DNA of 64,000 nt, taken from assembly GCA_963707655.1 (NCBI GenBank), contig OY970172.1, positions 192,001-256,000 of the forward strand. The letters are read 5' to 3'. Of this stretch, positions 5,928 through 60,278 are shown one piece after another. Every line of letters starts with the position of its first letter. Within the stretch, counting starts at the first letter, position 1. The DNA is from an uncultured bacterium (GTDB lineage Bacteria; Babelota; Babeliae; Babelales; Vermiphilaceae). The position numbers and the translations under genes were made by a program. Below the pieces are notes generated by a model. The model made no database searches, was not told the origin of the DNA, and was given only the letters and a program-made list of their open reading frames with translations.

Positions 5928-6004
5928 GTCTTTGCTTATCCGGGCCTGGTGCTCCTGAAGAGCACTATTTTAGTCTCGGCAAGCTTCGACTCGCTGACGC
6001 CAGC
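5928..6004 (+). repeat. REP-like element directly after tRNA CCA (gtctt(t/c)gct-hairpin-gcttcg family)
   Basis: Resembles the reverse complement of 52905-52945. Confidence 0.45.
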
Positions 6005-30678: not shown

Positions 30679-30883
30679 CTTTGCTTCCTTGTTAATTAAT
30701 TTCATGAGAATTTGTACCATAAAAAAATTGTTGCGCCCGATCAGCTAATTTTGCAAATTCAGTTTTATCCAAGCTGTTCAATTCGTCAGGGGTTACCTAG
30801 TTGACAAATCCAGAGGCTATGATATTAAATTCACCATAAGTCTACAGCATATCAAAACTGTGCTTTGCTCTTTCAATATAAAT

Positions 30884-31870
30884 CTATAAAGTTCCAAACA
30901 ATTTCATTCTTCTTTGACTGATTCTAGTTTCAGTTGTTTGCAATTCATCTTCAGTCATTTTGTCGATCCATGCAAAAGCTGAATTGCATTGCCTGCTTAT
31001 AAATTGGCAATTTGTAGGCGAATAGCCCTTATCCACATCAATCCTATCTAACTGTAAGCCTTTAATATGACCATTCTGCAAAGCCCAAGATTCAAAGTTT
31101 TCAAAATTTTCCAACCATTCTGCACACATTACAATTCCTCTGCCGCCATATCTCGCGTATGATTTATCAGAAGATAAATAGCACCTACGTCTTACATGAT
31201 TCCAAGTTACGTAAAGGGATGTTTTTGATTTTCCATGCGTTCTTAATCGCTCTTTAGTATAACAACCACAGCTTTTTGTCGAACTTCTTTCTAGCGATGA
31301 CGTTGATGCAAAAACCACAGTGCCACAGCGACATGAGCATTGCCAAATAAAACTACCCCATTTATCTGCGTGAGAAAATTTAATAACCTTTAAATAAAAA
31401 AATACCTTATCTATCAGTCTGTTTTCAGTTTGGTACCTACTACAATCAGCGCATTGTTTTAATCCATTTCTTTCTTTTCCTGGATTAAGCGCATGCAAAG
31501 TAGTTTTAAATAAATTTCCACATTCGCATTTTACCTCCCAAGGGGGACGGGAATCAATACCAGATGATCTTTCACCAACCAATAGCTGAACGACGGTAAG
31601 CTTACCAAATTGCTGTCCTTCAATTCTTTTGCGTGGTTCATAACTACAGGAGCTTCCGCATCCTTTTGTCTTTTTCGATCTTAAATCGCCACCGGAGATT
31701 GCTTTCTGCTTGCCGCATATACATTCACACATCCACATTATATGCTTGCCTCTATTTGAGGCACGATGTAATACCTTTAAATAAGTAAAAGTTTTTCCTG
31801 ATAAATTAATAAATTTGCCCACGTTTGGTATCTCCGTATCTACTAAAGGCCATATTTGCAAAACATACAA
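30884..31870 (-). CDS. Phage-type HNH endonuclease-like protein with three Cys-rich W.C.C.CG repeats
   Basis: Three G.L.V...W.C.C.CG-type repeats, then YGGRGI.MC.EW and LDRIDVDKGYSP.NC. Confidence 0.8.
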   Translation of the reverse strand: MYVLQIWPLVDTEIPNVGKFINLSGKTFTYLKVLHRASNRGKHIMWMCECICGKQKAISGGDLRSKKTKGCGSSCSYEPRKRIEGQQFGKLTVVQLLVGERSSGIDSRPPWEVKCECGNLFKTTLHALNPGKERNGLKQCADCSRYQTENRLIDKVFFYLKVIKFSHADKWGSFIWQCSCRCGTVVFASTSSLERSSTKSCGCYTKERLRTHGKSKTSLYVTWNHVRRRCYLSSDKSYARYGGRGIVMCAEWLENFENFESWALQNGHIKGLQLDRIDVDKGYSPTNCQFISRQCNSAFAWIDKMTEDELQTTETRISQRRMKLFGTL

Positions 31871-33148: not shown

Positions 33149-33447
33149 GGGAAACCTTTCTTCAAAAAATAGATATAAAAAAATTAAACTATTGAGAGTT
33201 CCAACTCTCTTAATTGCTTGTTCCTCACAAGCTCAAGAACTATGATTCTAACTATAGGTCTTGGGAAACATTTTTAATTTGCTTATGTATTTAGCGGGAG
33301 GCTTCCACCTTTTAACTATCTGCATTTGCAAAACTTAAGGATGTCATGTGACTTTCTGCTTAAATATTCAGAAATCACAAAACTAAATTTACAGTAAAAG
33401 TGTATGCTTTTCAAGCTATTTTTTAATAGTTATAAGATTTTGTTTTC

Positions 33448-33475
33448 TTGCATTCTTCAACAAATTATTTATAAT
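33448..33475 (+). promoter_or_regulatory. Sigma70-like promoter of rep module
   Basis: TTGCAT-N16-TATAAT; copy 2 has TTGCAA-N16-TATAAT with diverged spacer. Confidence 0.6.
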
Positions 33476-33519
33476 TTCCACAAAATGTAATGAATGTATC
33501 TGCATCCAAGGAGAGCAAC

Positions 33520-33618
33520 ATGAAATTCATCTTACCTATCAGGGCGCATAGCCTGATCGCATCCATCCACGAGCAAAGGCTCACGTATTGCGATGCATCA
33601 GACATGCTCGTGCAATAG
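33520..33618 (+). CDS. Conserved 32-aa leader ORF (MKFILPIRAHSLIASIHEQRLTYCDASDMLVQ)
   Basis: AAGGAG RBS; same start, stop and length in copy 2. Confidence 0.55.
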   Translation: MKFILPIRAHSLIASIHEQRLTYCDASDMLVQ

Positions 33619-33708
33619 CATCCAATCCAAAACAATCCCTATTAATTTTTAAATATGTGCTGATCAAAAATCGGCATGATGATACCTGTGTATCCTTGAA
33701 AGTTTTTT

Positions 33709-34032
33709 ATGATGGTAAGAAAAGTACCTGTTAAAGTTGTTCTTAACGCCGAAGATCGTAATAGGCTTGTTGCCTTCTTCTTGTTGCTTGCCGAAATGAA
33801 TAAAGAAGTAAACGGTAATAACAAGAAAACTAAAAAAGCAAAAACAAAGCCAAAAGATCAAACTAAAATAACCTCCATCTGGGGTGGGGCCTGCCTTAAA
33901 AGCAGGTCTTTTTATTTCCTTACAACTCCTGTATCTTTAAGGGCGGCCCATATAGCTAGCACCCGTAAAAGGTACATCAATGATCGACACAGTTGTTTTA
34001 ACACTCGGCTCGGATATATTCAGCATCATTAA
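33709..34032 (+). CDS. Small basic protein upstream of rep
   Basis: Homologous ORF at 54384; helix followed by Lys-rich stretch. Confidence 0.55.
   Translation: MMVRKVPVKVVLNAEDRNRLVAFFLLLAEMNKEVNGNNKKTKKAKTKPKDQTKITSIWGGACLKSRSFYFLTTPVSLRAAHIASTRKRYINDRHSCFNTRLGYIQHH
33888..33917 (+). terminator. Terminator-like hairpin upstream of rep (possible attenuator)
   Basis: ggcctgc-loop-gcaggtc followed by tttttattt; conserved at 54565-54596. Confidence 0.6.
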
Positions 34033-35010
34033 CCCAGATGCCTTCACTCCATCGGCCCACTGGGCATTGCCTAACGCAGCCCTTGCTCAGGCGGCCATCC
34101 AATCAAAGCAAAACCCAACCAAAAAAGAATTATTTGCCGGCATTTACAAGCCACGGCTCACATTAGCGCGCCGCATCAACTTGCATGGCCGCAGTGAGAT
34201 TATGCTTAAAATTGAATTGTCTTTGCCCAAGCTCTTTTTCGGCAATAATTTTGATGAGCTGCGCCTGAAAGATTTTAAACCGCTTATGCAAAAATTAGTT
34301 ATCATGTTGGAAGGCATGGGTGTTCGGATTACCGCTGCCGATCTTGCGCGGGCAGACGTACTGGCCGTCCATTACTCCAAAAATATAGCTCTCACGGATG
34401 GCTCAACTCCATACCATTACATCACCAAAATAAAAGAAGCCAACATCAAGTTATCGCTGGACACCAACCAAACGGATTACCGCAATGAAGGCCATAGCTA
34501 CAAATGGCACTGTAACTCATATGAGGTGGTATTTTATGATAAAATTCGCGATCTGGAAAAAGCAAAAAAGAGCGAAAAGCGCGCACTGGAAAAAGATAGC
34601 GCATTGCAGCTAAATTTGTTTGATACATTGCAAAAAAGACAGAAGCTGGAAATATTGCGCATGGAAGTTCGTTTAAATAAGCGGCAGAAAATAAAAACAC
34701 TTTTGCAAGCACTCAAGATTAAGCCCATCCTCACCTTGCAGGGTCTATTTAAAGCGGCCATATCAAAAAAGGTATTATTGCATTACTTGGATGAATTGGA
34801 GCGTAAGAGAAGCCCGTTGCTTGATTACAAGGCAACTGACAAGGGATTGTTAACCGCTTTGATATTTAATAATCCGGAGCTCGGCCCCAAACAGATTTTA
34901 CAATTGTATGGATTAAAGAAAGCGCTGGAACTGGTGGATGCTCGGGAGCTGAGAGTGATGTTTGCCAAATACAATGCGCGCAGCTGGTATCGGCTCATGG
35001 CTGATGCAAA
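33980..35010 (+). pseudogene. C-terminally truncated gpII/X-like replication initiator
   Basis: Nearly identical to 54658-55782 until MADA, then reads into antisense oxidase sequence. Confidence 0.8.
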
Positions 35011-43083: not shown

Positions 43084-44094
43084 ATGATAGAAAAACAATC
43101 TCTTTCAGATCAACGCATTATTGATTGCCTAGATACCGATTATGGCATTAAAGCTACTGCACTGACATTCATTCCTTTAGGTGCAGATATAGATGCATCA
43201 GTATACAAAGCTGAGACGCATGACCGGGCATCTTATTTTGTAAAGCTAAAACGTGGTTATGATCATGATATCGGTGTTATCATACAATCATTGTTATATG
43301 ATGCTGGTATTCAACAGATTATCTCACCTATCAAAACAAATCATGGTCAACCAACTCACTATATCGATAATTTTACGCTCATTGTCTATCCATTTATTAT
43401 CGGACAAGACGGCTTTAGCCGCGATCTCACCAACGATCAATGGATTACACTGGGCAAAGCCTTGAGACAAATTCATGAATTTCAGCTACCGCCATTAATC
43501 AAAGATCAGATTAAACGCGAATCCTATTCTCCACAATGGCAAGAAATTGTCCGATCATTCTATACGTATATCGACGCTGAACACAAGGTGACTGACGATA
43601 TAGCCCTGAAGTTGTTAACGTTTATGAAAGAGCATAGAAGAACAATTCAACGCTTAGTAAATCGCGCTGATCAGCTAGGAAAAAAAATCCAGAAAAAATC
43701 ATCTGAGTTTGTACTGTGCCATTCTGATATTCATGGCGGTAATGTATTAATAGCCAATGATGGGGCCATTTACATAGTAGACTGGGACCAACCTATTCTG
43801 GCCCCCAAAGAGTGGGATCTCATGTTTATTGGTGGTGGCATTGCAAACGTTTGGAATAATCCACATGAAGAAGAATTCTTCTATAAAGGTTACGGAAAAA
43901 CTGAGATCAATGGAGAAATTCTTGCCTATTATCGCTATGAACGAATTGTAGAAGATGTCGCTGTGTATGGTCAGCAGTTGCTTTTAAGCGCAGATGGGGG
44001 CAAGGACAGAGCGGTGATGTATAAGCAGTTCATAGATTTGTTTGCACCTCGGGGTGTGGTGGATATTGCATTTACAACAGATGCGGATTTATAG
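43084..44094 (+). CDS. Aminoglycoside phosphotransferase family kinase (APH(9)-like)
   Basis: LGAD..A.VY, YFVKL, LCHSDIHGGNVLI, IVDWD, APKE.DL. Confidence 0.85.
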   Translation: MIEKQSLSDQRIIDCLDTDYGIKATALTFIPLGADIDASVYKAETHDRASYFVKLKRGYDHDIGVIIQSLLYDAGIQQIISPIKTNHGQPTHYIDNFTLIVYPFIIGQDGFSRDLTNDQWITLGKALRQIHEFQLPPLIKDQIKRESYSPQWQEIVRSFYTYIDAEHKVTDDIALKLLTFMKEHRRTIQRLVNRADQLGKKIQKKSSEFVLCHSDIHGGNVLIANDGAIYIVDWDQPILAPKEWDLMFIGGGIANVWNNPHEEEFFYKGYGKTEINGEILAYYRYERIVEDVAVYGQQLLLSADGGKDRAVMYKQFIDLFAPRGVVDIAFTTDADL

Positions 44095-44104
44095 CTTAAC
44101 CGAA

Positions 44105-44608
44105 CTATTGTAAAACCCTTACCATGAGATAGTCAGAATCTTCATTAATCTCCATGAATTTGTACGCTACATGGGCCAGGAGCCGCAATGCTTTATTAAC
44201 AAAAACAAACTGATTGTCTGCATATAATTTAATAAGTTTTTTGAGCCTTAACTCACGATCGTAGGAAGGCATCGCAATAAATTTTTCTTCATGTATTTCA
44301 AAAGGGCCGGGTTGGATATATATTTTGGAAGCACCGTGCAGAGCGAGATAATCACAAGCGTGGTTAAGAAGTTGTGTTCCGTATCCCCTGTGTCTGTGTG
44401 TAGGTTCCATATAAAAATTGTACAATACGTAATAAGGAACTAAGGGGATTTTTTTGTAGTACAAAAAGCCTATGGTTTTCATTGCGTCATAACATTCTAT
44501 GCTTAATTCATTTTCGACGAGACCAAAAGAAATTTTTTGGCTACTCTCAATCGAATAAGTCACGGCCAACAAAGTAGAAATTGCTGCTCTCAATAAAACA
44601 TTTCTCAT
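44105..44608 (-). CDS. Secreted GNAT acetyltransferase
   Basis: HRHRGYGTQLL; signal-like N-terminus. Confidence 0.8.
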   Translation of the reverse strand: MRNVLLRAAISTLLAVTYSIESSQKISFGLVENELSIECYDAMKTIGFLYYKKIPLVPYYVLYNFYMEPTHRHRGYGTQLLNHACDYLALHGASKIYIQPGPFEIHEEKFIAMPSYDRELRLKKLIKLYADNQFVFVNKALRLLAHVAYKFMEINEDSDYLMVRVLQ

Positions 44609-44661
44609 AAATTATTTTTCTTGATTAACATAAAACTAACTGAAACCTACCAAGCAGAGCG

Positions 44662-44784
44662 CTGCGTAGCAGGAGCGAAGACTGACGGCATCACATCCGC
44701 GCGTTCAGTATGAATCAAATAGAATATAGCTTTAGTTTGCAAAACATTCAAACGCTGTTTTCATCAAAATGCACTGCTACATAG
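44662..44784 (+). mobile_element. Relic attachment junction (REP-like flank plus recombinase-tail homologue)
   Basis: 23-bp identity with 52925-52947, then *RHHIRAFSMNQIEYSFSLQNIQTLFS similar to WRYLIDAFGTHDVEFSFSLQSIQTVFS. Confidence 0.75.
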
Positions 44785-50028: not shown

Positions 50029-51363
50029 ATGTATATGATGCATGGTGCAAGCCTGTTCGGCGAAAACCTTATGACGCAAGAGCTCTGGCAGAGACGCTCA
50101 GTAAAAAATCGAAGGTCTCCTTTCTTTAAAAAAAGTTTTTTGTGTGTTGTTCTATCTCTGATGTCCCCAGTATTAGGTTCATCATGTCCTGACACTACGC
50201 CATGGAGTGCGCCGGTTAATGTAAGTAATTCTGGTAATGTCACCAGCAGTATATTCTCTGCGGCAACATCTGCCGGTTTCATGGCCGTGTGGGCAGACTC
50301 TTCAAATAACGCTAATTATAGTTTTTCAAGCGATGGTGCTAGTTGGCAAAGCGGTTTAGTCACTCCTGCCGTAGGGGACGTTGCTCCTTCTTCAGATGTT
50401 TTTGTTGCCGGTAATGCCAGTGGCTTTCTGGTAGCATGGATGGATAGTTCAAATAATGGCTGGTCAAGCTTTTCCGCTAATAATGGCAGTAGCTGGAGTC
50501 CCGCGATTCAAATAAATGGTTCGTTAGCACTGGATCCCAACGCTGATATTTACGTCAGCGCGGGAACGGGCGGTTTTGTCGCCACCATGATAGCAGGGGG
50601 TGGATTCGGCAGCGATAACGCGTATGTAAGTTTTTCGACCGGCACTTCAGGGTGGAGTATTCCTACGCAAGTTACTACCGATGGGTCGGTATCTAACTAT
50701 GCAAATCCGAGCACATCATCAGGAAGAGGATTTGTGTGCGCCGATGTTGTGGGTAATACCTGTATGTTGACGTGGCTCACGGTTAGCTACTCAACAGCTT
50801 CAGCTTTCTTTACCTCAATTAATCCTTTTTCATCAACTACCGTTTATCCTATAGTGAGCGTAGGTTATTATGAAAGCGCTGCTATTGTGGCATCACTCAA
50901 TGGCTATTATATGGAAACTGCACGAGCGAATATAAGTGGTACTAATGGGGTAAATAATTATTCTGTGTGTACGAGCCCGGCTAACTGGGCGGCATTTTCA
51001 GTCACTTTATCAACAGCACCACGCAATCCTGGTGTTGGCCCTTGGGTTGCTGCTAATCCTACTGGCTTTATGTCGAGCTGGGCTGAGACGGCTGATCAGG
51101 CGAGTTATCCGGGCACGCCTATGTGGATCTTCTCCAGTAACAATGGCTTCAACTGGACACCGGTATGTTCTATTTTGCAGTCACCATCATCTACCACCAT
51201 ACTTGGTCCTGTTGGCTTGAGCGGCAATTATAAAGGCTTTGTATCTACGTGGGTAGATAGCGCTGATTCAAATGCGTATGCATCATTTTATTCTGCTCCC
51301 TCATCAACCGGGTATGATGTATTTGTAGAATTACTGCAACAAAAATATGGCCCGCTCTTATAA
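50029..51363 (+). CDS. Secreted Ser/Gly-rich Asp-box (BNR) beta-propeller-like protein
   Basis: Repeats SSDGASW, SANNGSSW, SSNNGFNW, each preceded by GF.A/S.W; start uncertain. Confidence 0.78.
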   Translation: MYMMHGASLFGENLMTQELWQRRSVKNRRSPFFKKSFLCVVLSLMSPVLGSSCPDTTPWSAPVNVSNSGNVTSSIFSAATSAGFMAVWADSSNNANYSFSSDGASWQSGLVTPAVGDVAPSSDVFVAGNASGFLVAWMDSSNNGWSSFSANNGSSWSPAIQINGSLALDPNADIYVSAGTGGFVATMIAGGGFGSDNAYVSFSTGTSGWSIPTQVTTDGSVSNYANPSTSSGRGFVCADVVGNTCMLTWLTVSYSTASAFFTSINPFSSTTVYPIVSVGYYESAAIVASLNGYYMETARANISGTNGVNNYSVCTSPANWAAFSVTLSTAPRNPGVGPWVAANPTGFMSSWAETADQASYPGTPMWIFSSNNGFNWTPVCSILQSPSSTTILGPVGLSGNYKGFVSTWVDSADSNAYASFYSAPSSTGYDVFVELLQQKYGPLL

Positions 51364-51376
51364 AAGGAAATTTATA

Positions 51377-52798
51377 ATGAAGACACTTTTTACACAAAAA
51401 ACTTTATTCACCTTTCTGGCACTCGCGAGCATAGGAACCCAAATGCTCCGCGCAGATTGCTACGCACATTCTATTTTTGTACCACGTCAACTCGCTTATA
51501 ATCCTATGTATGAAGATGCGCTTGTTTTTGAAGAATATGCGCATATGGATGATAAATTTTTGCTCTCAGTTAAACCCATTTATACGCAAACCGTTGGTAA
51601 ATCGATAAAAAAATATTTTAATATCGATCACTTGTGCTCCATGAATGTGCAAGAAAATGGCTCGGGAAATATTGACTCGCTTTGGTTCCAAGTTATTTCT
51701 GCTCCGGGCGCCTTCTATTCTTCAACATTGTCATTTAATCCGGTGCAAAAAACAGCGGGTGCTTTAGTTTATTTTGCCTGGATGTTTTCTGAAGATTGTG
51801 CATTAACCGTAAACACGGCGTTTATCAACCGAAAAACAAATATGCATATCTGCGAGACAAACATTGCTAATCTTGGGCAAGCGCCCGGATTTGCCACGAT
51901 CAGCCAATCGTTCATGAATCCAGCTATGCTGTATGGCAAAATTTGTGGCGAGCGATCAAAAGGGGGTGTTGATGATCTGCAAATCAAATTGCTCAAGAAT
52001 TTTTATTTGTGTGAGGATGAATCACTATTCGCAGATATCTATGCATTAGTGGGAGTGCCAACAGGACACGGCTCACGAGCAGTGTATCTCTTTGAACCGC
52101 TGGTGGGATCAAATCATGCGCAATTTGGCCTTGGTCTTAACGCTGAAAAATCATTTGACTGCCTGTGTGATGGGTTTTCGTTATACGGTGAGCTTAAATG
52201 GCGTTATGCTTTTAAAGCAACAGAAACCAGATCATTTGATATGGCGCCAAATGGCCAATGGTCGCGCTATATGCTGTTCACCACACCAACGGCAGATGCA
52301 ACACCATTTCCGGCGATTAACGATCTTACGTTTAAAGCACAGGTTACCCCGCGCAACTCATTCGATCTGCTGGTAGCGGCACACGCCGAACTGTGCAGAT
52401 TCAGTTTTGAACTCGGTTACAATTTCTGGTATCGCCAATCAGAAAAAGTGTGCCCCTACATCTGCTTGCCTCCCGTTGGTATTGCCGATCTGGTAGGTAT
52501 AGCGCAATTGCCGGCACCGGTGACTATCACTACCTCAAGCAAGGCAACTATTTCTGAAGGAGTGTATCCAAATCAATATCAAATGCCGCGTGATGCAGCA
52601 TACACCGTGGTAACTGCAGCAAATATTAATCCCTGCAGTGGCGCACAAGCAGCTTCAATGGCAAACGGCGTATTTGGTTCAATCGGTTGTCAATGTAATT
52701 GCTGGGATTTCGGCCTCAATGCATCATACGAAGGGGCCGCAAATAGCAATACCGCAAGTGTTGCTTCAGTATGGGTGAACATCGATTTTCTGTTTTAA
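51377..52798 (+). CDS. Probable outer-membrane beta-barrel protein
   Basis: Signal peptide, alternating beta-strand pattern, C-terminal ...VNIDFLF. Confidence 0.7.
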   Translation: MKTLFTQKTLFTFLALASIGTQMLRADCYAHSIFVPRQLAYNPMYEDALVFEEYAHMDDKFLLSVKPIYTQTVGKSIKKYFNIDHLCSMNVQENGSGNIDSLWFQVISAPGAFYSSTLSFNPVQKTAGALVYFAWMFSEDCALTVNTAFINRKTNMHICETNIANLGQAPGFATISQSFMNPAMLYGKICGERSKGGVDDLQIKLLKNFYLCEDESLFADIYALVGVPTGHGSRAVYLFEPLVGSNHAQFGLGLNAEKSFDCLCDGFSLYGELKWRYAFKATETRSFDMAPNGQWSRYMLFTTPTADATPFPAINDLTFKAQVTPRNSFDLLVAAHAELCRFSFELGYNFWYRQSEKVCPYICLPPVGIADLVGIAQLPAPVTITTSSKATISEGVYPNQYQMPRDAAYTVVTAANINPCSGAQAASMANGVFGSIGCQCNCWDFGLNASYEGAANSNTASVASVWVNIDFLF

Positions 52799-52846: not shown

Positions 52847-53023
52847 ATTGAGTAATCTAATTAAGAAACTGGTTCTAATTGGCTCCTTCCAGAGTTGCTA
52901 AGAACTGGTCTGCCAGACGAAGCCCTGCGTAGCAGGAGCGAAGACTGGCGGTACCTCATTGACGCGTTCGGTACGCATGATGTTGAATTTAGCTTTAGCT
53001 TACAAAGCATCCAAACGGTATTT

Positions 53024-53896
53024 TCATTGCTTGGAGTTGGCAATCCCACATAGTATTCCTAAACAAAAGGGATAAAAAACTTGAAAAAGTGTAACGGGAC
53101 CGCGACACTTAAAGAATTGGGCTTTTTCTTTTGGTCCGTATTCAGTAGCTACGCCATAAAGAATAATGTTTTGAATTTGTTTATCTTTAAAGATCACTTT
53201 CCATAGGGCGCCACCGCTTAAACCACAAAAAGATTTAGGAACTTTATTTTTTGTTTGAATCGGGCAAGTAATATAATCTAAGGTAACCATAAGATTAATA
53301 GGAGCTTCATAGGAACAGGTCCCATATTCAATAGTACTGGGTATCACTATATTGGATCCACCTTTATAAACTACAATTATATTATAAGGTGGTGTTGAAA
53401 CTCCATATTGTCTTTTTTTACCTTCAGCTACAACACCATTAATAACCCAAATGCCTGCTTTACTATCATCTACAGTGAAAGGTTTATGTTCTTGGGCGGA
53501 TTGGTCCATGTCCCAAAACCTTTTGCCCAAACTTTCAATGACTTCATAGGCGCTTGGACGCAGAGCAAAAAAAGCTAAATCAACTCCAACACCCGGAGCA
53601 AGTGCAGGTATTCTAATGATGTTCTCAAATTGTAAAATTTTTGAATCTGGAGCCGAATATAATATATGCACATAAGAAAGGTTTTTATCTATGAAAATTT
53701 TTGCTACGTGATCATTAGTTAACAATCCTTTTACTCCACCAATTATAACAAATGTTCCACTACCAAGCTCTGTATCTTTTATTATGCTGGAGGGACTAAA
53801 TAATGCAGTACTATATATGCCAGTAGCTTGAGCTACACTGTTTTTATAATAATCTTGTTCTTCAAGTGTCATTGTTGATTCGTTTTTTTCATTCAT
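53024..53896 (-). CDS. Trypsin-like serine protease
   Basis: GSG, LLTNDHVA (His), VDLAF (Asp), GLSGGALW (Ser). Confidence 0.8.
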   Translation of the reverse strand: MNEKNESTMTLEEQDYYKNSVAQATGIYSTALFSPSSIIKDTELGSGTFVIIGGVKGLLTNDHVAKIFIDKNLSYVHILYSAPDSKILQFENIIRIPALAPGVGVDLAFFALRPSAYEVIESLGKRFWDMDQSAQEHKPFTVDDSKAGIWVINGVVAEGKKRQYGVSTPPYNIIVVYKGGSNIVIPSTIEYGTCSYEAPINLMVTLDYITCPIQTKNKVPKSFCGLSGGALWKVIFKDKQIQNIILYGVATEYGPKEKAQFFKCRGPVTLFQVFYPFCLGILCGIANSKQ

Positions 53897-54031
53897 GAGT
53901 TTTGCCTTTTGTTACTTATTCATTAAAGATTTAAAATTGTATAAAGGTTAAGGAGTTACCCAAACAATTGCAATTAAGCTATGGAATTTTTGTTACACCT
54001 CTAAAAGAACCACATATACTTTCTCAAAGAG

Positions 54032-54099
54032 CAATTTTATAACACGAACCATTCAAACGATATTCTATTGGGCCATGATTGCGAACCAATAGAACGTAA
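54032..54099 (-). repeat. ~65-bp repeated site A (inverted relative to B and C)
   Basis: Reverse complement reads ttacgttctattggttcgcaatcatggcccaatagaatatcgtttgaatggttcgtgttataaaattg. Confidence 0.88.
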
Positions 54100-54194
54100 T
54101 TCAAAAGAAAAGGTGATTTGTTCTTGCAATTCATTACAAATCACCTATAATCTCCAGCAATGTAATGAATGTATCTGCACCCAAGGAGAGCACA

Positions 54195-54293
54195 ATGAAA
54201 TTCATCTTACCTATCAGGGCACATAGCCTGATTACATCCATCCATGAGCAGTGGCTCACGCGTTGCGATGCATCGGACATACTCGTGCAATAG
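54195..54293 (+). CDS. Conserved 32-aa leader ORF (MKFILPIRAHSLITSIHEQWLTRCDASDILVQ)
   Basis: AAGGAG RBS; homologue at 33520. Confidence 0.55.
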   Translation: MKFILPIRAHSLITSIHEQWLTRCDASDILVQ

Positions 54294-54383
54294 CACCCAC
54301 ACCCAAAACAATCCCTATTAATTTTTAAATATACGCTGATAAGAGATCGGCATGGATGATACCTGAATCCTTGAAAGTTTTTT

Positions 54384-54752
54384 ATGATGGTAAGAAGAAA
54401 AGTACCTGTTAAAGTTGTTCTCAATGCTGAAGAACTCAATAAAATGGCTATGTTCTTTGCAGTTCTTGTTGCGGTTGACAGACGAGTCAATGGTAATAAA
54501 AACAAAGCTAAAAAAGCAAAAATGAAGCCAAAAGACCAAACTAAAATAACCTCCATTTGGAATGAGGCCTGCCTAAAAAGCAGGTCTTTTTATTTCCTTA
54601 CAACTACTGTATCTTTAAGGGCAGCCCATGAAAGTAGCGCCCGTAAAAGGTACATCAATGATAGACACAGTTGTTTTAACACTCGGCTCGGATATATTCA
54701 GCATCACCGATCTGGATGCCTTTACTCCATCAGCTCATTGGGCATTGCCTAA
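54384..54752 (+). CDS. Small basic protein upstream of rep
   Basis: Homologue of 33709-34032. Confidence 0.55.
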   Translation: MMVRRKVPVKVVLNAEELNKMAMFFAVLVAVDRRVNGNKNKAKKAKMKPKDQTKITSIWNEACLKSRSFYFLTTTVSLRAAHESSARKRYINDRHSCFNTRLGYIQHHRSGCLYSISSLGIA

Positions 54753-55782
54753 TGCAGCCCGTGTTCAGCCGGGCACCCAATCAAAACAAAACCCAACCAA
54801 AAAAGAGTTATTGGCCGGCATTTACAAGCCTCGGCTCACACTCGCGCGCCGCATCAATTTGCATGGCCGCAGTGAGATTATGCTTAAAATTGAGTTATCT
54901 CTTCCCAAGCTATTTTTCGGCAACAATTTTGATGAACTGCGCCTGAAAGATTTTAAACCGCTCATGCAAAAATTAGTTACGGCGCTAGAGAGCATGGGTG
55001 TTCGTGTTACTGCTGCCGATCTTGCACAGGCAGACGTACTGGCCGTCCATTATTCTAAAAATATTCTTCTTAAGGACGGTTCAACTCCATACCACTACAT
55101 TAATAAAATAAGAGAAGCCAATATCAAGCTATCGCTTGATACGAACCAAACGGATTACCGCAATGAAGGCCATAGCTACAAATGGCACTGCAATTCATAT
55201 GAAGTGGTATTTTATGACAAAATTCGCGATCTTGAAAAAGCAAAGAAGAGCGAAAAGCGCGCGCTGGAAAAAGATAGCGCATTGCAGCTGAATCTATTTG
55301 ATATGTTGCAAAAAAGGAAAAAGCTGGAAATATTGCGCATGGAAGTGCGCCTGAATAAGCGGCAAAAAATAAAACAACTTTTGCAAGCACTCAAGATTAA
55401 GCCCATCCTCACCTTGCAGGGCTTATTTAAAGGTGCTATATCAAAAAAGGTATTATTGCATTACTTGGATGAATTGGAGCGTAAGAGAAGCCCATTGCTT
55501 GATTACAGGGCTACGGATAAGGGATTGCTAACCGCTTTGATATTTAATAACCCTGATCTTGGTCCCAAACAGATTTTACAATTGTATGGATTAAAGAAGG
55601 CGCTTGAAGTGGTGGATGCTCGCGAGCTGAGAGTGATGTTTGCCAAATACAATGCACGCAGTTGGTATCGGCTCATGGCTGATGCAAATAAGGTTAAACT
55701 GCCAATGAAAAATAGCTCATTCAGCGAAATACGAAAACATTTAATTAAATTTAAGCCATTGAGGTACAATTCATGGCTTTAA
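54658..55782 (+). CDS. Phage/plasmid replication initiator, gene II/X-like (rolling circle)
   Basis: MIDT start, IELSLPKL.FGNN, FYDK..D, LRMEVRL motif order. Confidence 0.72.
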   Translation: MIDTVVLTLGSDIFSITDLDAFTPSAHWALPNAARVQPGTQSKQNPTKKELLAGIYKPRLTLARRINLHGRSEIMLKIELSLPKLFFGNNFDELRLKDFKPLMQKLVTALESMGVRVTAADLAQADVLAVHYSKNILLKDGSTPYHYINKIREANIKLSLDTNQTDYRNEGHSYKWHCNSYEVVFYDKIRDLEKAKKSEKRALEKDSALQLNLFDMLQKRKKLEILRMEVRLNKRQKIKQLLQALKIKPILTLQGLFKGAISKKVLLHYLDELERKRSPLLDYRATDKGLLTALIFNNPDLGPKQILQLYGLKKALEVVDARELRVMFAKYNARSWYRLMADANKVKLPMKNSSFSEIRKHLIKFKPLRYNSWL

Positions 55783-56468
55783 AATCACCTGCACAAAAAA
55801 TTATGTCCTCTCTTGCTATGTTCAAATTTTCAAGAACAGAATTGCGTTTTATGCGAGATGAAGCGGTGAATTGGGAAGAATTGAGTAAACAAATAATGGA
55901 AGGGACAAATTGTATTCCGATTGGAAAGACAAAATCTGATTATGCAAAAGTAATTGAGGCGATTCGCTTGGCTGCTTGCGGCTATCATGTTGAGATTATG
56001 GGACAGGCTTTAGAAGAATATATTTCTGAAAAAAACTTGAGTAATATTGCTTCTTTATATGAGTTAGAAAAATATTTATTTCTTCTTAGATGTGCTTTAT
56101 TGCACACAGAGGGGGAGTTGCTGGCTAAATGGCAATTTAATAGAAACAATCCAACTAAAAAAGAGATAAATGCTATAAAGAAACTACAAGCAGGAGGTTT
56201 AAAAATTAAAATCCCTGTTATAAAAGTGGAAGGAAAAGACGATTGTTATGATGAAAAATCAGAAATCTATAAGAAATTAACATTTAAAGTATATCTTAAA
56301 AAAAATAACAATAATGGAACCACCCATCCAATAGTTAGATTAAATGAAGGATTGATATATAAACTGATGCTTTTAAGTGATCACGTTTGCACTATTACAA
56401 AAAAGAAAAATCCATCTACATTACTTAAATATTTGAACCGAACTACTGTGAAAGAAAGAACAATATAA
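55773..56468 (+). CDS. Hypothetical protein coupled to rep
   Basis: 231-aa ORF, GAGG RBS, overlaps rep stop. Confidence 0.7.
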   Translation: MALKSPAQKIMSSLAMFKFSRTELRFMRDEAVNWEELSKQIMEGTNCIPIGKTKSDYAKVIEAIRLAACGYHVEIMGQALEEYISEKNLSNIASLYELEKYLFLLRCALLHTEGELLAKWQFNRNNPTKKEINAIKKLQAGGLKIKIPVIKVEGKDDCYDEKSEIYKKLTFKVYLKKNNNNGTTHPIVRLNEGLIYKLMLLSDHVCTITKKKNPSTLLKYLNRTTVKERTI

Positions 56469-56486
56469 GAATAAGAAATAAAAGCG

Positions 56487-56553
56487 TTACGTGCTATTGG
56501 TTCGCAATCATGGCAAAACAGGATTCCGTTGATTGGTTCGTGTTATAAAATTG
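56487..56553 (+). repeat. Repeated site B
   Basis: ttacgtgctattggttcgcaatcatggcaaaacaggattccgttgattggttcgtgttataaaattg. Confidence 0.88.
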
Positions 56554-58069
56554 GATTGATCTTGTGTGATAAGTGTTGCAAGATTTTATACATCGCATAA
56601 GTATCTAGCTGGCAATACTGCCTTAAATTGTTGGCGATTTCATTTTTTTCAGTTTCGGTGAGGGTTGCTCCCAGCATGGCAAACCATTTTTCGGAAGCGG
56701 CTCCGCCATCTTGAATCCCTAATGTAGCGTAAGACAGTTCGGGTACCAAAACAGGTAATATATTCTTGATAGATGTCTTTCCATTAAAGCCTGCGGCTAC
56801 ATAATGTTGTTTTTTAAAGATTTCTTCTAAATCAAAAAAACGATTATTTAAATTCTGTAAAAACGCTTCATATTCGGGATGACGTTCGCCTAATCCATTA
56901 TTTATCATTTGTTCAAAACTTTTATGCCAAACAATAATACTGCCAACATGACCTATCAGATCCATAAGCTTCTTAATTATAATCTCTGACGGATCAGAAT
57001 TAAATTCATGAAGATATTCATAATGTGCTGGCTCAGAATCAGTATCAGTTAACACATATAAAGAAAATTGAAATGGAAGTTGTTGATATGGTGTAAAGCC
57101 GTTAAAAAGCGGGATGGGGGAAGAATAGCTTTCATAATCTAGGAAGTATAATGGATACACCAGCTTATCCAATTCATGCTTGATTGCTATGGAATCAAAA
57201 ATTAGTTTTTTAAATTTGTAAGCATTCACCTGATTTTTTTGTATGTCAGTCAATTCAAAATTGTCAGGAATGTCATCAATATTCAAAATATTGGCATTAA
57301 TTAACGGGGTAAGTTTTTTTTGATTGATTCTGGCGATATCATGCACCGAGACAGCTGGTACATATGCATGTGAATAGCCAAATGACTTACAGTGTGTACT
57401 GCGTCCTTTATAAATACAATTACATGCTAAGGCTTCTTGTTCATTTTGTAACAAATCAATTTTCGCCTGCTGCATTCTGATTCTTGTTCTAGGTTCTCGT
57501 TCTTTCACCTTATCGGTTATATTACTGATAATAAAAAGCTCATTAATATCAATATCATGTATCCGAACATAATCTTTGTTAAGATGAATGATGAAGATAT
57601 CTTCTAGTTCAATTCCCTTCTCTTGCAATACTATTGCCTGGAAGGTAGCATCTTCAATGTGATCATTTTCATCACTAGTTTCTTCTAAAGAATTTTTCCC
57701 TTTTATTTCATAAAGTTTCCACTTGCCGCTTGTTGCATTGTATTCAAGCACGTCATTCCGTACTAAAAATTTGTCATGATAAAACGTTGCCTGAAACAAT
57801 ATGGGTGTCTTTTGTTCTATGTGTGATTGGGTAAGAAGAGCGGCATCATTACCATGCTTGTCGATCAGGATAGCTTGAGGGAACAATTGTTGCGCCCACG
57901 ATTCGGCCAAATTTCCTTTATCCAAAATGCCTTGTTCAAAGGCTGACAATGCAAAAAAATCCTGCAATACATCTTTTTTGTGTAGTCTGAGCCAGGCATT
58001 TTTTGGACATGCCAAATATTCTCGATATATAGTTTTATGAACAAATTTATTCATATCAATAACCGCCAT
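56543..58069 (-). CDS. DUF2779-domain protein (RecB/Cas4-like N-terminus plus RNase H-like domain)
   Basis: CPK..W, D.L...EIK, YFLDYES, PYQQLPFQFS, SIK..LP, YCQLDT. Confidence 0.85.
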   Translation of the reverse strand: MAVIDMNKFVHKTIYREYLACPKNAWLRLHKKDVLQDFFALSAFEQGILDKGNLAESWAQQLFPQAILIDKHGNDAALLTQSHIEQKTPILFQATFYHDKFLVRNDVLEYNATSGKWKLYEIKGKNSLEETSDENDHIEDATFQAIVLQEKGIELEDIFIIHLNKDYVRIHDIDINELFIISNITDKVKEREPRTRIRMQQAKIDLLQNEQEALACNCIYKGRSTHCKSFGYSHAYVPAVSVHDIARINQKKLTPLINANILNIDDIPDNFELTDIQKNQVNAYKFKKLIFDSIAIKHELDKLVYPLYFLDYESYSSPIPLFNGFTPYQQLPFQFSLYVLTDTDSEPAHYEYLHEFNSDPSEIIIKKLMDLIGHVGSIIVWHKSFEQMINNGLGERHPEYEAFLQNLNNRFFDLEEIFKKQHYVAAGFNGKTSIKNILPVLVPELSYATLGIQDGGAASEKWFAMLGATLTETEKNEIANNLRQYCQLDTYAMYKILQHLSHKINPIL

Positions 58070-58160
58070 GAAAGAAATGATAAATATCGCCTATTGAATA
58101 TATTATGCTACTTGCAAATAAAGTACAGCGATTATTACCATTTTTCATGTTTATTCCGAG

Positions 58161-58216
58161 TTTCGTCCATTGGTTCGTAATCATAGCCCAGCAGAATTCC
58201 GTTGATTGGTTCATGT
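58161..58216 (+). repeat. Repeated site C
   Basis: tttcgtccattggttcgtaatcatagcccagcagaattccgttgattggttcatgt. Confidence 0.85.
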
Positions 58217-58308
58217 CACTATGATAATTGTTATCGAAATAGCACTCTTGTGATAGACTGCTACGTTAAAAATACTCTCTTTTAAACAAATAAATTGAGG
58301 TAAAAAAT

Positions 58309-58758
58309 ATGTGCATATTTAGCTGGATATTTAAAAAAACAAAAGATACACCCACTATAAGTGTAGAGCAATTTGTATCTGAATCATTAGTACAAATTTG
58401 CAATGGAATTCGAAGCGCACAAACAAAAATAACCAGAATTCCTTTTGGAACAGATGAAGATAAATATTTTGTTCCCTATATTATGCCCTATCCAGCGGGA
58501 GGTAGAAAAGATGAAATATCTCAAATTCACTTTGATATTGCCGTTACTGTCTCGCATGCTAGATCTACCTCACATGTTGAAACCACATCAATCAAGGGCG
58601 CAATAACCACGCCGAATATATTCGTTGTCGAAGGACGTGCTAACTTAGAAAAAGGAAAAACAACTGACCAATCTGCTTCTTCAATTAGTCGCATAACCTT
58701 TTCTATTCCTGTTATTTATCCTCGGATGCCATTGCCTCTCTCTGGGAGTGAAAAATGA
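58309..58758 (+). CDS. Trypco2-like (trypsin co-occurring) small protein
   Basis: FVSESLVQI..GI..AQ, FDIAVTV, SRITFSIPV pattern; ATGA overlap with recombinase. Confidence 0.55.
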   Translation: MCIFSWIFKKTKDTPTISVEQFVSESLVQICNGIRSAQTKITRIPFGTDEDKYFVPYIMPYPAGGRKDEISQIHFDIAVTVSHARSTSHVETTSIKGAITTPNIFVVEGRANLEKGKTTDQSASSISRITFSIPVIYPRMPLPLSGSEK

Positions 58759-60212
58759 AAGCAATCCTTATAGCTAGAGTAAGCACCGAAGAACAAAGAG
58801 AAGCCGGCAATTCATTACCTGCCCAGGTAGCACGGCTCGAAAGATACTGCCAAACAAAAGGCTTTAAGGTTGCACAAATTTGTAGCTTTGATGAAAGCGC
58901 CTATACCAATGATCGCTCAGAGTTTGACCGTATAATTGATATCATTTTGGCTCAAACGGAAAAGACCGCTGTTTGCTGCGATAAAGTGGATAGGCTTTCC
59001 CGGAATGTGTTTGATAAGCGTATCTCCATCCTTTATGAAAGAGCTTTAAATGATCAGATAGAACTGCATTTTGTATCCGATGGCCAGATCATTACCAGCC
59101 GTATCTCTGCCGTGGAAAAATTCCAATTCAGCATCAGTCTGGGCTTAGCGAAGTACTATTCAGATGCCATCAGCGATAACGTCAAGCGTGCATTGGAACA
59201 AAAGCTCCGCAGGGGAGAATGGCCAGCCATGGCTCCCTTTGGCTATAAAAATATCACTAAGGCTGATGGCAATACCGATATCATTATGGATGAGTATGAA
59301 GCGCATATTATAAGAACCATATTCGAGTACTATGCCACGGGTGGCTATTCAATCGATCTGCTGCGTATAAAAATTAAAAATGACTATGGGCTCGATTGGG
59401 CCAAGGGGTATGTCTGGAAGATTCTTAACAACCATTTCTTCCACGGTATCATGATCGTAAAAGGGAAGTCATATCCCCATCGCTATCCAACCATCATCAC
59501 CCAGGCGCTCTTTGATCAGGTGCAAAAAGTAAAAGCCAGCTTTAATAAACAGCCGGTTAAATTTGCCGGGCTTCCTTTCATGTATCGCGGCCTTATCCGC
59601 TGTGAGCAGTGTGGATGCGCCATAACCCCCGAGAAGCACAAGGGGCACGTCTATTACCATTGTACTCAATATAACGGCAAGCATGGGGCAAAATGGCTGC
59701 GGGAAGAAAAGCTTACGGAACAACTGGTGGAGATTTTTAAAAGTCTTCAAATGCCAAAAGATGTATTGTTGCAAATAACCGAGACACTCAATGCGGTTCA
59801 TGAAGATAAAGTTGAGTTTCATGAGAAGGAATTTGATAAGCTCACTGCCGAACAGAAAATGATCTCCAAGATGATCGACAATCTCTACCTTGATAAACTG
59901 AAGGGGAGAATTACTGACAGCGAGTATGACAGATTTTACACATCGTTTAGAGATCAAATCACCGATATCAGTATCCGTCTTGAGAAATTACAAGAAGCCG
60001 AAGACAACTATTATGTTACGGCAAAATACCTACTGAATCTGGTTAATAGAGCTTTTGATGTATTTATGAGTTCTGAAGTGGAAGAAAAAAGGCAATTAAT
60101 CAAGTTTATACTATCGAACCTGAGACTAGATGATGAGAAACTGCTCTGGGACAGTGCAAAGCCATTTGATCTGATCCTAAATTGTTCGGATCGACAACAA
60201 TGGCGGAGCTGA
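58755..60212 (+). CDS. Large serine recombinase (integrase)
   Basis: ARVST catalytic Ser, DKVDRLSR, APFGY, CEQCG...YYHC zinc ribbon, coiled coil; stop lies inside tRNA-Asp. Confidence 0.95.
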   Translation: MKAILIARVSTEEQREAGNSLPAQVARLERYCQTKGFKVAQICSFDESAYTNDRSEFDRIIDIILAQTEKTAVCCDKVDRLSRNVFDKRISILYERALNDQIELHFVSDGQIITSRISAVEKFQFSISLGLAKYYSDAISDNVKRALEQKLRRGEWPAMAPFGYKNITKADGNTDIIMDEYEAHIIRTIFEYYATGGYSIDLLRIKIKNDYGLDWAKGYVWKILNNHFFHGIMIVKGKSYPHRYPTIITQALFDQVQKVKASFNKQPVKFAGLPFMYRGLIRCEQCGCAITPEKHKGHVYYHCTQYNGKHGAKWLREEKLTEQLVEIFKSLQMPKDVLLQITETLNAVHEDKVEFHEKEFDKLTAEQKMISKMIDNLYLDKLKGRITDSEYDRFYTSFRDQITDISIRLEKLQEAEDNYYVTAKYLLNLVNRAFDVFMSSEVEEKRQLIKFILSNLRLDDEKLLWDSAKPFDLILNCSDRQQWRS

Positions 60213-60278
60213 TGGGACTCGAACCCACGACCTTCCGCGTGACAGGCGGACGCTCTAACCAAACTGAGCTACAGCTCC
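60201..60278 (-). tRNA. tRNA-Asp(GTC)
   Basis: ggagctg/cagctcc, tccgc-ctGTCac-gcgga, GTTCGAG, CCA. Confidence 0.96.

Follow-up and report, generated by a model that had tools for sequence, protein, structure and literature searches.

A putative integrative element at the tip of a tRNA-Asp gene whose large serine recombinase gene appears to span its own attachment site

The DNA considered here is a stretch of 64,000 nucleotides (nt) from a Dependentiae/Babeliales genome (G000), placed there by the names that close homologues carry, which consists of one contig of 1.09 Mb, and "the window" always means this whole stretch at its full length, not the element alone. The sequence supports the presence of a 7.26-kb integrative element, inserted at the last six bases (…CCGCCA) of a transfer RNA (tRNA) gene for aspartate. 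This target, tRNA-Asp(gtc), was found intact by ARAGORN on the minus strand (60201..60278), followed by tRNA-Asn and tRNA-Val, and the same Asp-Asn-Val cluster is also present in relatives. On the plus strand, an open reading frame (ORF) of 485 amino acids (58755..60212) runs into the tRNA gene and ends …SDRQQWRS, its last 12 nt including the stop codon being the antisense of tRNA-Asp. The hexamer TGGCGG at 60201..60206 (plus strand; right core, attR) codes for W483-R484 and, read on the other strand, gives the last six tRNA-Asp bases. The same six letters are found at 52946..52951 (plus strand; left core), the putative crossover region of the left junction attL, where identity with the right junction begins exactly at the T of TGG and stops after 6 nt; 7255 nt separate the two cores. 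The left core opens an in-frame segment of 35 codons and a stop (WRYLIDAFGTHDVEFSFSLQSIQTVFSLLGVGNPT; 52946..53053, plus strand), hereafter called the tail, which would be the integrase C-terminus only in the circular element. Outside it, at 52880..52945 on the minus strand, lies a repetitive extragenic palindromic (REP)-like sequence with two small hairpins, which appears to be the native tRNA-Asp trailer displaced by the insertion and which forms the outer, host-side arm of attL. Its reverse complement starts GTCTTCGCTCCTGCTACGCAGGG, and trailers of this type (NNCT[TAG][CT]G[CT][CT]) follow 20 of the 38 tRNAs of the genome, including tRNA-Leu(gag) of the window. A preliminary description of this DNA had pointed out the antisense end of the ORF, the 35-codon stretch behind the second TGGCGG and the REP-like flank of the kind that follows tRNA-Leu, and all three were confirmed.

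The ORF is a large serine recombinase, as its combination of Resolvase (PF00239, residues 3-156, E 1.5e-20), Recombinase (PF07508, residues 182-259, E 1.5e-09) and zinc-ribbon domains (Zn_ribbon_recom, PF13408, residues 277-325, E 2.5e-07) implies. In PHROGs, it matched the integrase family phrog_95 with an E value of 3.4e-66. Across 58 homologues, S10 occupies a nearly invariant column and R8 an invariant one, and by its position S10 is the presumed nucleophile; four zinc-ribbon cysteines (C283, C286, C303 and a neighbour) are conserved among homologues as well. An AlphaFold2 model of a 71%-identical homologue (P0031), based on an alignment of 78 rows, reached a mean predicted local distance difference test (pLDDT) value of 86 and contained a coiled-coil insertion with long helices at residues 335-382 and 388-415. 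Foldseek searches with this model returned the SPbeta integrase (9dxd, E 1.9e-18) and also the Bxb1, phiC31 and LI integrases. The resolvase-type catalytic domain, the order of Recombinase and zinc-ribbon domains and the coiled-coil insertion of serine integrases were thus all found, the last of them on the P0031 model.

The TGGCGG repeat alone is no more than chance, with 29 copies in the window compared to 20.4 ± 4.4 in shuffled sequences, and its significance comes only through the comparison with relatives. Full-length homologues of the integrase, 57-83% identical, were found at 11 places in related genomes, and 10 of them end on the antisense of a tRNA 3' end (Asp in three cases, Glu in six and Arg in one). 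All 12 integrases, including that of the window, are conserved up to the tryptophan and thereafter follow the tRNA antisense until a chance stop, as in WRG-stop, WRP-stop, WRPQGDLNPCFRRERAMS-stop or WCARQDSNLRPTD…. Among the 120 best database homologues, tRNA-antisense ends were recognized in 103 (55 Asp-type, 19 Glu-type, 15 Arg-type and 14 others with the T-loop signature DSN), while the remaining 17 comprise one with the tail, five with another conserved extension, eight unclassified ends and three that were missed by the pattern, one of them visibly WRS. In metagenomes, where loci were gathered with a single-protein query, 22 of the 31 loci that hold the 3' end of the gene abut a tRNA for Asp, Glu, Gln, Asn or Leu.

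Similar ends were also encountered outside this immediate family. A second large serine recombinase of the same genome, 32% identical and located outside the window (G000:C1:996006-997531), has its end, …KTGKWCAR, on the antisense of the tRNA-Arg(tct) tip and shows this design in a distant subfamily; at E≤1, the genome yielded no tail copy belonging to it. Two recombinases on gut metagenome contigs (L119 and L120), 29-30% identical to P0031, end W-L-G-W-L-D-S-N… on tRNA-Gln antisense, which indicates that the design extends well beyond Dependentiae. Further proteins carry other extensions behind the tryptophan, namely …LRTFxWxS… (P0014, P0030, P0061, P0064, P0112 and L099), …W(D/I)xFRxxDWxNxxEYPELT… (P0290 and L081) and …LPSxE… (P0324, L082 and L083). 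Each type is conserved among independent sequences, and beside those checked neither a tRNA nor, on the five loci searched with Rfam, an Rfam RNA was found; these extensions may be alternative tails or belong to other targets.

At the far end of the elements, a matching pattern was observed. Where both are on one contig, the tail lies 6-18 kb upstream of the integrase on the same strand, and all 12 paired elements (eight on single contigs, including that of the window, and four from metagenomes) carry TGG plus core followed by an in-frame tail of 31-48 amino acids. The core common to both junctions begins at or just before TGG in these 12 elements, is only 6-12 bp long and co-varies with the tRNA: TGGCGG was found at Asp, TGGCGTC(C) at Glu, TGGCATCC at a variant Glu, TGGCTG at Gln and TGGCTCCC at Asn. 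Measured from tryptophan codon to tryptophan codon, eight sister elements span 6.2-18.3 kb, each with the tail at the far end.

This pattern supports a left boundary of the element at 52946. An unoccupied tRNA-Asp in a genome of the same genus (G001) reads …GCGAAGAC directly beside TGGCGG. The attempt to find an empty site by synteny of the left flank did not succeed: the gene there has a 76%-identical relative in another genome (G005), but in a different context. For the inferred arms of attP, the attachment site of the circular element, the best dyad symmetry was centred between core positions 5 and 6, with 48 of 104 complementary pairs compared to 17-40 for the other 29 centres, which would make the last two core bases the likely crossover point. 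Strand exchange would thus most likely take place within TGGCGG, at its last two bases.

With regards to the host arm, the REP-like trailer with its hairpins stands directly after CCA, at 5928-5990 of the window and at other tRNAs across the genome, and at least seven tRNAs (Ser-gga, Ser-gct, Phe, Lys-ctt, Ser-cga, Gly-gcc and Arg-tcg) have a nearly identical version of about 60 nt. The trailer corresponds to the host arm of the integrase target and may be a processing signal, a terminator or a repeat that spreads. The trailer arm at attL was also considered as the 3' end of the integrase gene and rejected, as several copies contain in-frame stops, the hairpins show compensating changes, and such trailers also follow tRNAs without an element. 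In a soil-metagenome contig of 368 nt, the segment 52908-53209 (the trailer arm from its start, and the tail) recurs with a single difference, preceded by 66 letters that do not match, which suggests that another strain carries this attL with other DNA on its left.

A search with the translated left junction detected tail relatives in 15 of 41 genomes, at 22 places in all (E≤0.001), and the tail opens at an in-frame TGG in 16 of the 20 aligned copies. The consensus reads WRxLVDxFRNxxIEFxFSLQxIQTVFSxLGI, whereas the very ends are varied (…GNPT, …GSIP, …IAI, …LIKA) and none of 20 terminates in -LAA or -AA. Over 24 codons of 21 copies, pairwise identity at codon positions 1, 2 and 3 was 0.575, 0.712 and 0.41, and the frame contained no stop, compared to 20-55 stops in each of the other five frames. 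The median ratio of non-synonymous to synonymous substitution rates (dN/dS) was 0.35, based on the 100 usable pairs out of 210. Conservation runs for about 100 nt past the core. As an attP half-site of serine integrases spans only about 27 bp from the centre, as reported for phiC31 (10.1101/2025.05.02.651858), at most the first nine tail codons can double as a binding site.

Furthermore, uninterrupted forms occur naturally. Two ORFs (L047 and L051) read straight through the junction as …KPFDLLMKCNDRLL-WRYLVDKFRNHEIEFGFSLQ…, and five integrases with a tail were present among the 215 gathered proteins of at least 330 amino acids, three of them full-length (P0031 with 516, P0272 with 521 and P0274 with 520 amino acids) and two partial (P0273 and P0271). 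The tail also extends to a subfamily type of 32% identity, for example P0255 and P0127. When 1.84 billion representatives were searched with a profile of the tail, 155 proteins matched at E≤0.001; almost all are short ORFs with the tail in terminal position, and 29 of the best 150 matches also have an integrase C-terminus ahead of it. Full-length tail-bearing integrases cannot be counted in this library of 50%-identity representatives, in which they cluster with tail-less ones. A word-based search with the tail region of P0031 returned P0031 itself only, from four candidates, the tail being too diverged for this method. In this way, the comparison of homologous C-termini that had been proposed at the outset did reveal tail-like ends in P0031, P0272, P0274 and the 29 fragments. 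The predicted lengths of 517 and 485 amino acids follow correctly from 482 residues before the tryptophan plus 35, close to the natural forms of 516-521.

In the P0031 model, the tail forms two helices (484-491 and 501-511, pLDDT 71-83), so it is apparently a conserved, folded helix-loop-helix of about 33 amino acids. When the tail of the window and the tail-less enzyme were modelled as separate chains, the complex score was 0.50 and that of the best control 0.00, a result that was rated as weak support. Of 157 solved complexes, 116 reach the mark that it passed, as do 2 of 215 mismatches, and scores of 0.60 or lower came from only 18 of the 157 solved complexes plus both mismatches. Contact agreement between the runs was at least 93%, and the partner pLDDT was at least 70.

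With regards to these data, the sequences support that the tail is coding and part of the integrase. The anatomy first suggested for this locus, with attP inside the recombinase ORF, has held up in the 12 paired elements with their in-frame tails and in the uninterrupted genes, and it is very probable that the circle would encode a protein of 517 amino acids and the integrated copy one of 485. The Trp codon TGG of residue 483 would thereby double as the antisense of the tRNA CCA end, and integration would keep the tRNA intact while cutting the enzyme gene.

Several observations weigh against this interpretation. One of the 11 homologues (L015) ends WR-stop and lacks both a tRNA and a tail downstream. 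The unoccupied site of G001 matches the flank in the window over 8 nt only, so the left boundary rests mainly on the family pattern, and farther out the flank of G001, with 627 nt before its contig ends, matches nothing in the genome studied, which leaves left synteny unproven. The joints expected for the circle (60206/52952) or the empty site (52945/60207) were not listed in four public runs, the only ones with parts of the stretch, which hold short, low-depth contigs and at most 0.21 of the sampled words, so that this negative carries no weight in either direction; none of the public runs listed was an RNA run holding the stretch. The tail copies came from a protein-level search in that very frame, and this biases their statistics towards a coding look. 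The complex test of tail and enzyme was a weak pass only, and a C-terminal fragment modelled alone (P0182, 13 sequences) was poor with a pLDDT of 57.7. In the SPbeta integrase, the last 28 residues are reported as disordered (PMC11722253), which implies that the C-terminal ends of such enzymes can be dispensable. Finally, both attL copies of the window, the intact one and an older one described below, carry the host-type trailer arm, although simple serial insertion by a serine integrase predicts an element-type arm. The predicted pattern was seen in another genome (G002), with one trailer arm far left, terminator-type arms inside and three integrase-less units of 1.5 kb. A lost second copy of tRNA-Asp or the spread of REP-like trailers is a possible explanation for the host-type arms in the window.

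What the exchange of the C-terminus would do can be outlined as follows. The circle-encoded enzyme of 517 amino acids would end in the conserved tail, and the last residues (R-S) of the integrated 485-residue enzyme would be whatever the tRNA antisense spells. The circle-encoded enzyme must be able to integrate, as it is the sole enzyme that a newly arrived element can make, and the tail would be a working part of this integration-competent form. Loss of the tail would then alter the activity of the prophage enzyme, with the state of the DNA setting the isoform. We tentatively propose that the prophage enzyme is attenuated or altered, which would make integration self-limiting and trap many copies; this is consistent with the many trapped relics. 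A true directionality switch, in which the 517-residue form would perform only attP x attB and the tail-less form attL x attR without a separate factor, is a bolder and unlikely alternative. In such a switch, the tail would normally occupy the zinc-ribbon/coiled-coil hinge surface where directionality factors act, and a large family of serine integrases would have switched its targets to the CCA ends of six or more tRNA species. For the SPbeta integrase, the directionality factor was reported to act near the C-terminus (F532) and at the coiled-coil hinge, and its fusion to the integrase reverses the direction (PMC11722253). A C-terminal appendage would therefore be well placed to modulate direction.

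A one-way, "suicidal" design is possible as well, if somewhat unlikely. Here, the tail would be needed for any activity, the integrated 485-residue enzyme would be dead, and exit would proceed only via a full-length enzyme from a co-resident circle. Decayed relics are indeed common: the window has three tail copies and one integrase, G002 has three tail copies and no integrase match, and relatives contain many stop-bearing integrase fragments. Archaeal integrases with attP in their gene have been described in these terms (PMC8371274). However, the integrated enzyme keeps every canonical domain up to W483, intact integrated ORFs of 484-486 amino acids are very common (100 of the 363 proteins gathered), and the analogous C-terminal change left the Mx8 integrase active (PMC6070905, reporting Magrini et al.).

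The swap could also be a neutral by-product of compaction, with attP merely overlapping the 3' end of the gene and the tail-less enzyme equalling the full one, which we consider unlikely. The ends of the integrated form are arbitrary, with 2 to more than 20 tRNA-antisense residues that are evidently tolerated, and the first nine or so tail codons coincide with the expected attP half-site, so that conservation is partly at the DNA level; the disordered C-terminal residues of the SPbeta integrase (PMC11722253) would fit as well. Yet protein-level conservation of the tail continues for about 24 codons past any half-site, across genera and into the 32%-identical type of P0255 and P0127, and the tail is predicted to fold and dock. 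Since a functionless part would not stay conserved, neutrality is disfavoured.

Apart from these functional questions, the extent of the mobile unit was considered, as the region to the left of the element contains older copies of its parts. In an attL-like remnant at 44650..44783 (plus strand), the trailer arm is unchanged (23 of 23 nt), the core has mutated to TGACGG and the tail (..AFSMNQIEYSFSLQNIQTLFSS..) has diverged. The remnant is about 77-79% identical to attL at 52905-53055, and its tail is about 77% identical with synonymous changes. A still older, decayed tail remnant (YLVDKSRGYDIKFTISLQHIKTVLCSFNINL-stop) at 30794..30889 (plus strand) has lost the core and was recognized by the profile at E 1.1e-06, while a fourth candidate at 33367-33432 (E 7.2) looks like noise and was rejected. 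At 33445..35010 (plus strand) lies a partial copy of the element's pair of genes for proteins of 140 and 384 amino acids, a remnant of another family element, with 87% nucleotide identity to 54121-55688; its version of the 384-residue protein is 92.6% identical over residues 3-353. These copies of attL, tail and gene pair indicate that about 29 kb beside tRNA-Asp are accreted element material. Accordingly, the mobile unit could be a larger, composite island that extends back to 44.7 kb or 30.8 kb and has 52946 as an internal joint, but this is very unlikely considering that the older cores are mutated or lost, that core and tail are intact only at 52946, and that the eight sister elements share the same organization and the size range given above. 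Least probable of all, and largely refuted by the sequences, is that the enzyme always ends near W483 and the tail has no part in it, being instead a small gene of its own or a DNA or RNA element by attP: gene callers do predict many short ORFs (36-120 amino acids) ending in the tail, and the tail of the window falls within an ORF starting at TTG 52895, but what precedes the tail at attL is a tRNA trailer that does not code for protein, lacks a conserved start and is interrupted by in-frame stops in several copies, and both the uninterrupted integrase-plus-tail ORFs and the in-frame TGG of most tails speak for a joint reading frame.

Other observations concern this accreted region and the units in G002. 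In that genome (L072, G002:C34:9800-15700), three tandem units of about 1.5 kb are 85-92% alike, and each opens with TGGCGGGGC plus tail. They contain ankyrin-like repeats of 100 nt, end at a tRNA-Asp with an unoccupied-looking flank, and may be mobilisable mini-elements or products of unequal crossing-over. Just left of the older attL remnant of the window, within the older accreted region, an APH-family phosphotransferase (PF01636, E 4e-12) and a GNAT acetyltransferase are encoded at 43084-44608. Closer to the element, 50029-52798 holds ORFs of 444 and 483 amino acids without a Pfam match, whose guanine-plus-cytosine content of 0.44-0.49 is above the surroundings. The 483-residue ORF has its 76%-identical relative in G005 in other context, and its end, …NIDFLF, presumably resembles that of an outer-membrane protein.

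Between attL and the integrase, the element carries six further ORFs, five of which had no match in PHROGs, NCBIfam and Pfam. Next to the left junction, a cargo ORF of 290 amino acids (53024..53896, minus strand) without a known family overlaps the tail segment with its 3' end by 30 nt; its one relative, 40% identical, adjoins the integrase in L015. It is followed by the ORF of 140 amino acids (54134..54556, minus strand), the second copy of which at 33486-33878 is 64% identical, and by the ORF of 384 amino acids (54628..55782, plus strand), the second core gene of the element family with homologues in seven of the eight elements compared. The 384-residue protein had no Pfam, PHROG or NCBIfam match. 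Its language-model look-alikes include clusters in which 25-31% of the members carry PF05144 Phage_CRI, a replication family of filamentous phages (score 0.97; a lead only), so a role as rolling-circle replication initiator is possible. A cargo ORF of 231 amino acids (55773..56468, plus strand) has one relative, 31% identical, on contig C34 of G002. The next cargo ORF, of 508 amino acids (56543..58069, minus strand), belongs to DUF2779 (PF11074, E 2.7e-37) and is flanked by direct repeats of about 58 nt at 56486-56543 and 58160-58216. A sequence of about 60 nt was in fact found three times inside the element (54032-54099, 56486-56553 and 58160-58216; 83-87% identity), one copy being inverted and the two direct ones flanking the DUF2779 gene, and these repeats may mark the borders of cargo cassettes. 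Finally, an ORF of 149 amino acids without a known family (58309..58758, plus strand), absent from the other seven elements compared, overlaps the integrase start with its stop (ATGA).

Common to the eight elements compared are only the integrase (8 of 8) and a family of proteins of 373-480 amino acids (7 of 8). Based on these gene contents, the family probably consists of small integrative elements that replicate by a rolling circle and carry exchangeable cargo. Among the element genes, none suggests itself as a conserved directionality factor, which fits the preliminary description; as the directionality factors of serine integrases are diverse (PMC11795197), one may nevertheless be encoded.

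For better comparison, the element was set against known systems in which an attachment site lies within a gene. The attB site of Mx8 is situated in a tRNA-Asp gene, and integrases of the archaeal SSV type target tRNA genes as well. The nearest functional analogue is the integrase IntP of Mx8, which also exchanges its own C-terminus in a bacterium: attP lies within the integrase coding sequence, integration creates a new 3' end, and the altered protein reportedly keeps its activity with an altered site specificity (PMC6070905, citing Tojo 1996 and Magrini 1999). In its chemistry, IntP belongs to the tyrosine recombinases, whereas the enzyme described here is a large serine recombinase with a core of 6-12 bp at the CCA end and a conserved tail. 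In the archaeal SSV-type "suicidal" integrases, the att site lies in the gene, integration partitions it, and excision is thought to need a complete gene elsewhere; the source describes these integrases as exclusive to archaea (PMC8371274). They too are tyrosine recombinases, while in our element only the last 35 codons are exchanged and the catalytic and DNA-binding domains stay in one piece. The RAP44-like phages of Riemerella carry attP inside the integrase gene, which is divided when they insert at the 3' end of tRNA-Ser (PMC12169736). Their integrase is of the tyrosine type with a XerD domain, and with att at nucleotides 25-43, it is the 5' end that is split off and not the C-terminus.

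The precedent that had been named for this locus, the mycobacteriophages, is real but not the closest, as the three systems above are nearer. In BPs, Brujita and the clusters G, N and P, attP lies inside the repressor gene, integration into a tRNA gene removes an ssrA-like C-terminal tag, and no separate directionality factor is evident (PMC9262239). As here, attP sits in a gene and integration drops a C-terminal segment, and in the phages the behaviour of the protein changes; there, however, the repressor gene is split by a tyrosine integrase, while here the integrase gene itself is split and the tail ends are varied, none of them in -LAA. The element shares domain order, apparently short att sites and, judging from the P0031 model, fold and coiled-coil insertion with the integrases of phiC31, Bxb1, SPbeta and LI/A118, and we know of no such canonical large serine integrase with attP in its ORF. 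In the canonical enzymes, a separate directionality factor binds the zinc-ribbon domain and the coiled-coil hinge (PMC11722253). With attP in its own integrase gene and serine instead of tyrosine chemistry, the element works like the Mx8-, SSV- and RAP44-type systems and stands outside their protein families.

A search of the literature, with subscription journals largely outside its coverage, found no serine integrase whose ORF spans attP or that targets tRNA tips. In the tycheposon preprint, a large serine recombinase is mentioned for 27 of 937 elements but not described further in the passages found (10.1101/2020.12.28.424599), and no occurrence of "tRNA" was matched in the available portion of the serine recombinase catalogue of Durrant et al. 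Our analysis adds the definition of the conserved tail, its coding signature, the covariation of core and tRNA, the natural uninterrupted forms and the array in the window.

Serine integrases are valued for genome engineering for being simple and one-directional, and their reversal needs a separate factor that is hard to find. If true, a switch between two isoforms that is set by the state of the DNA would be a new way to control these enzymes. With cores of 6-12 bp, the members of the family use the final few bases of the genes for tRNA-Asp, Glu, Gln, Asn, Arg and Leu, and this natural series would offer related enzymes whose targets differ and can be predicted. The family contradicts the textbook view that only tyrosine integrases target tRNA genes, and it would represent a main vehicle of gene flow in Dependentiae, a lineage whose mobile elements are little known.

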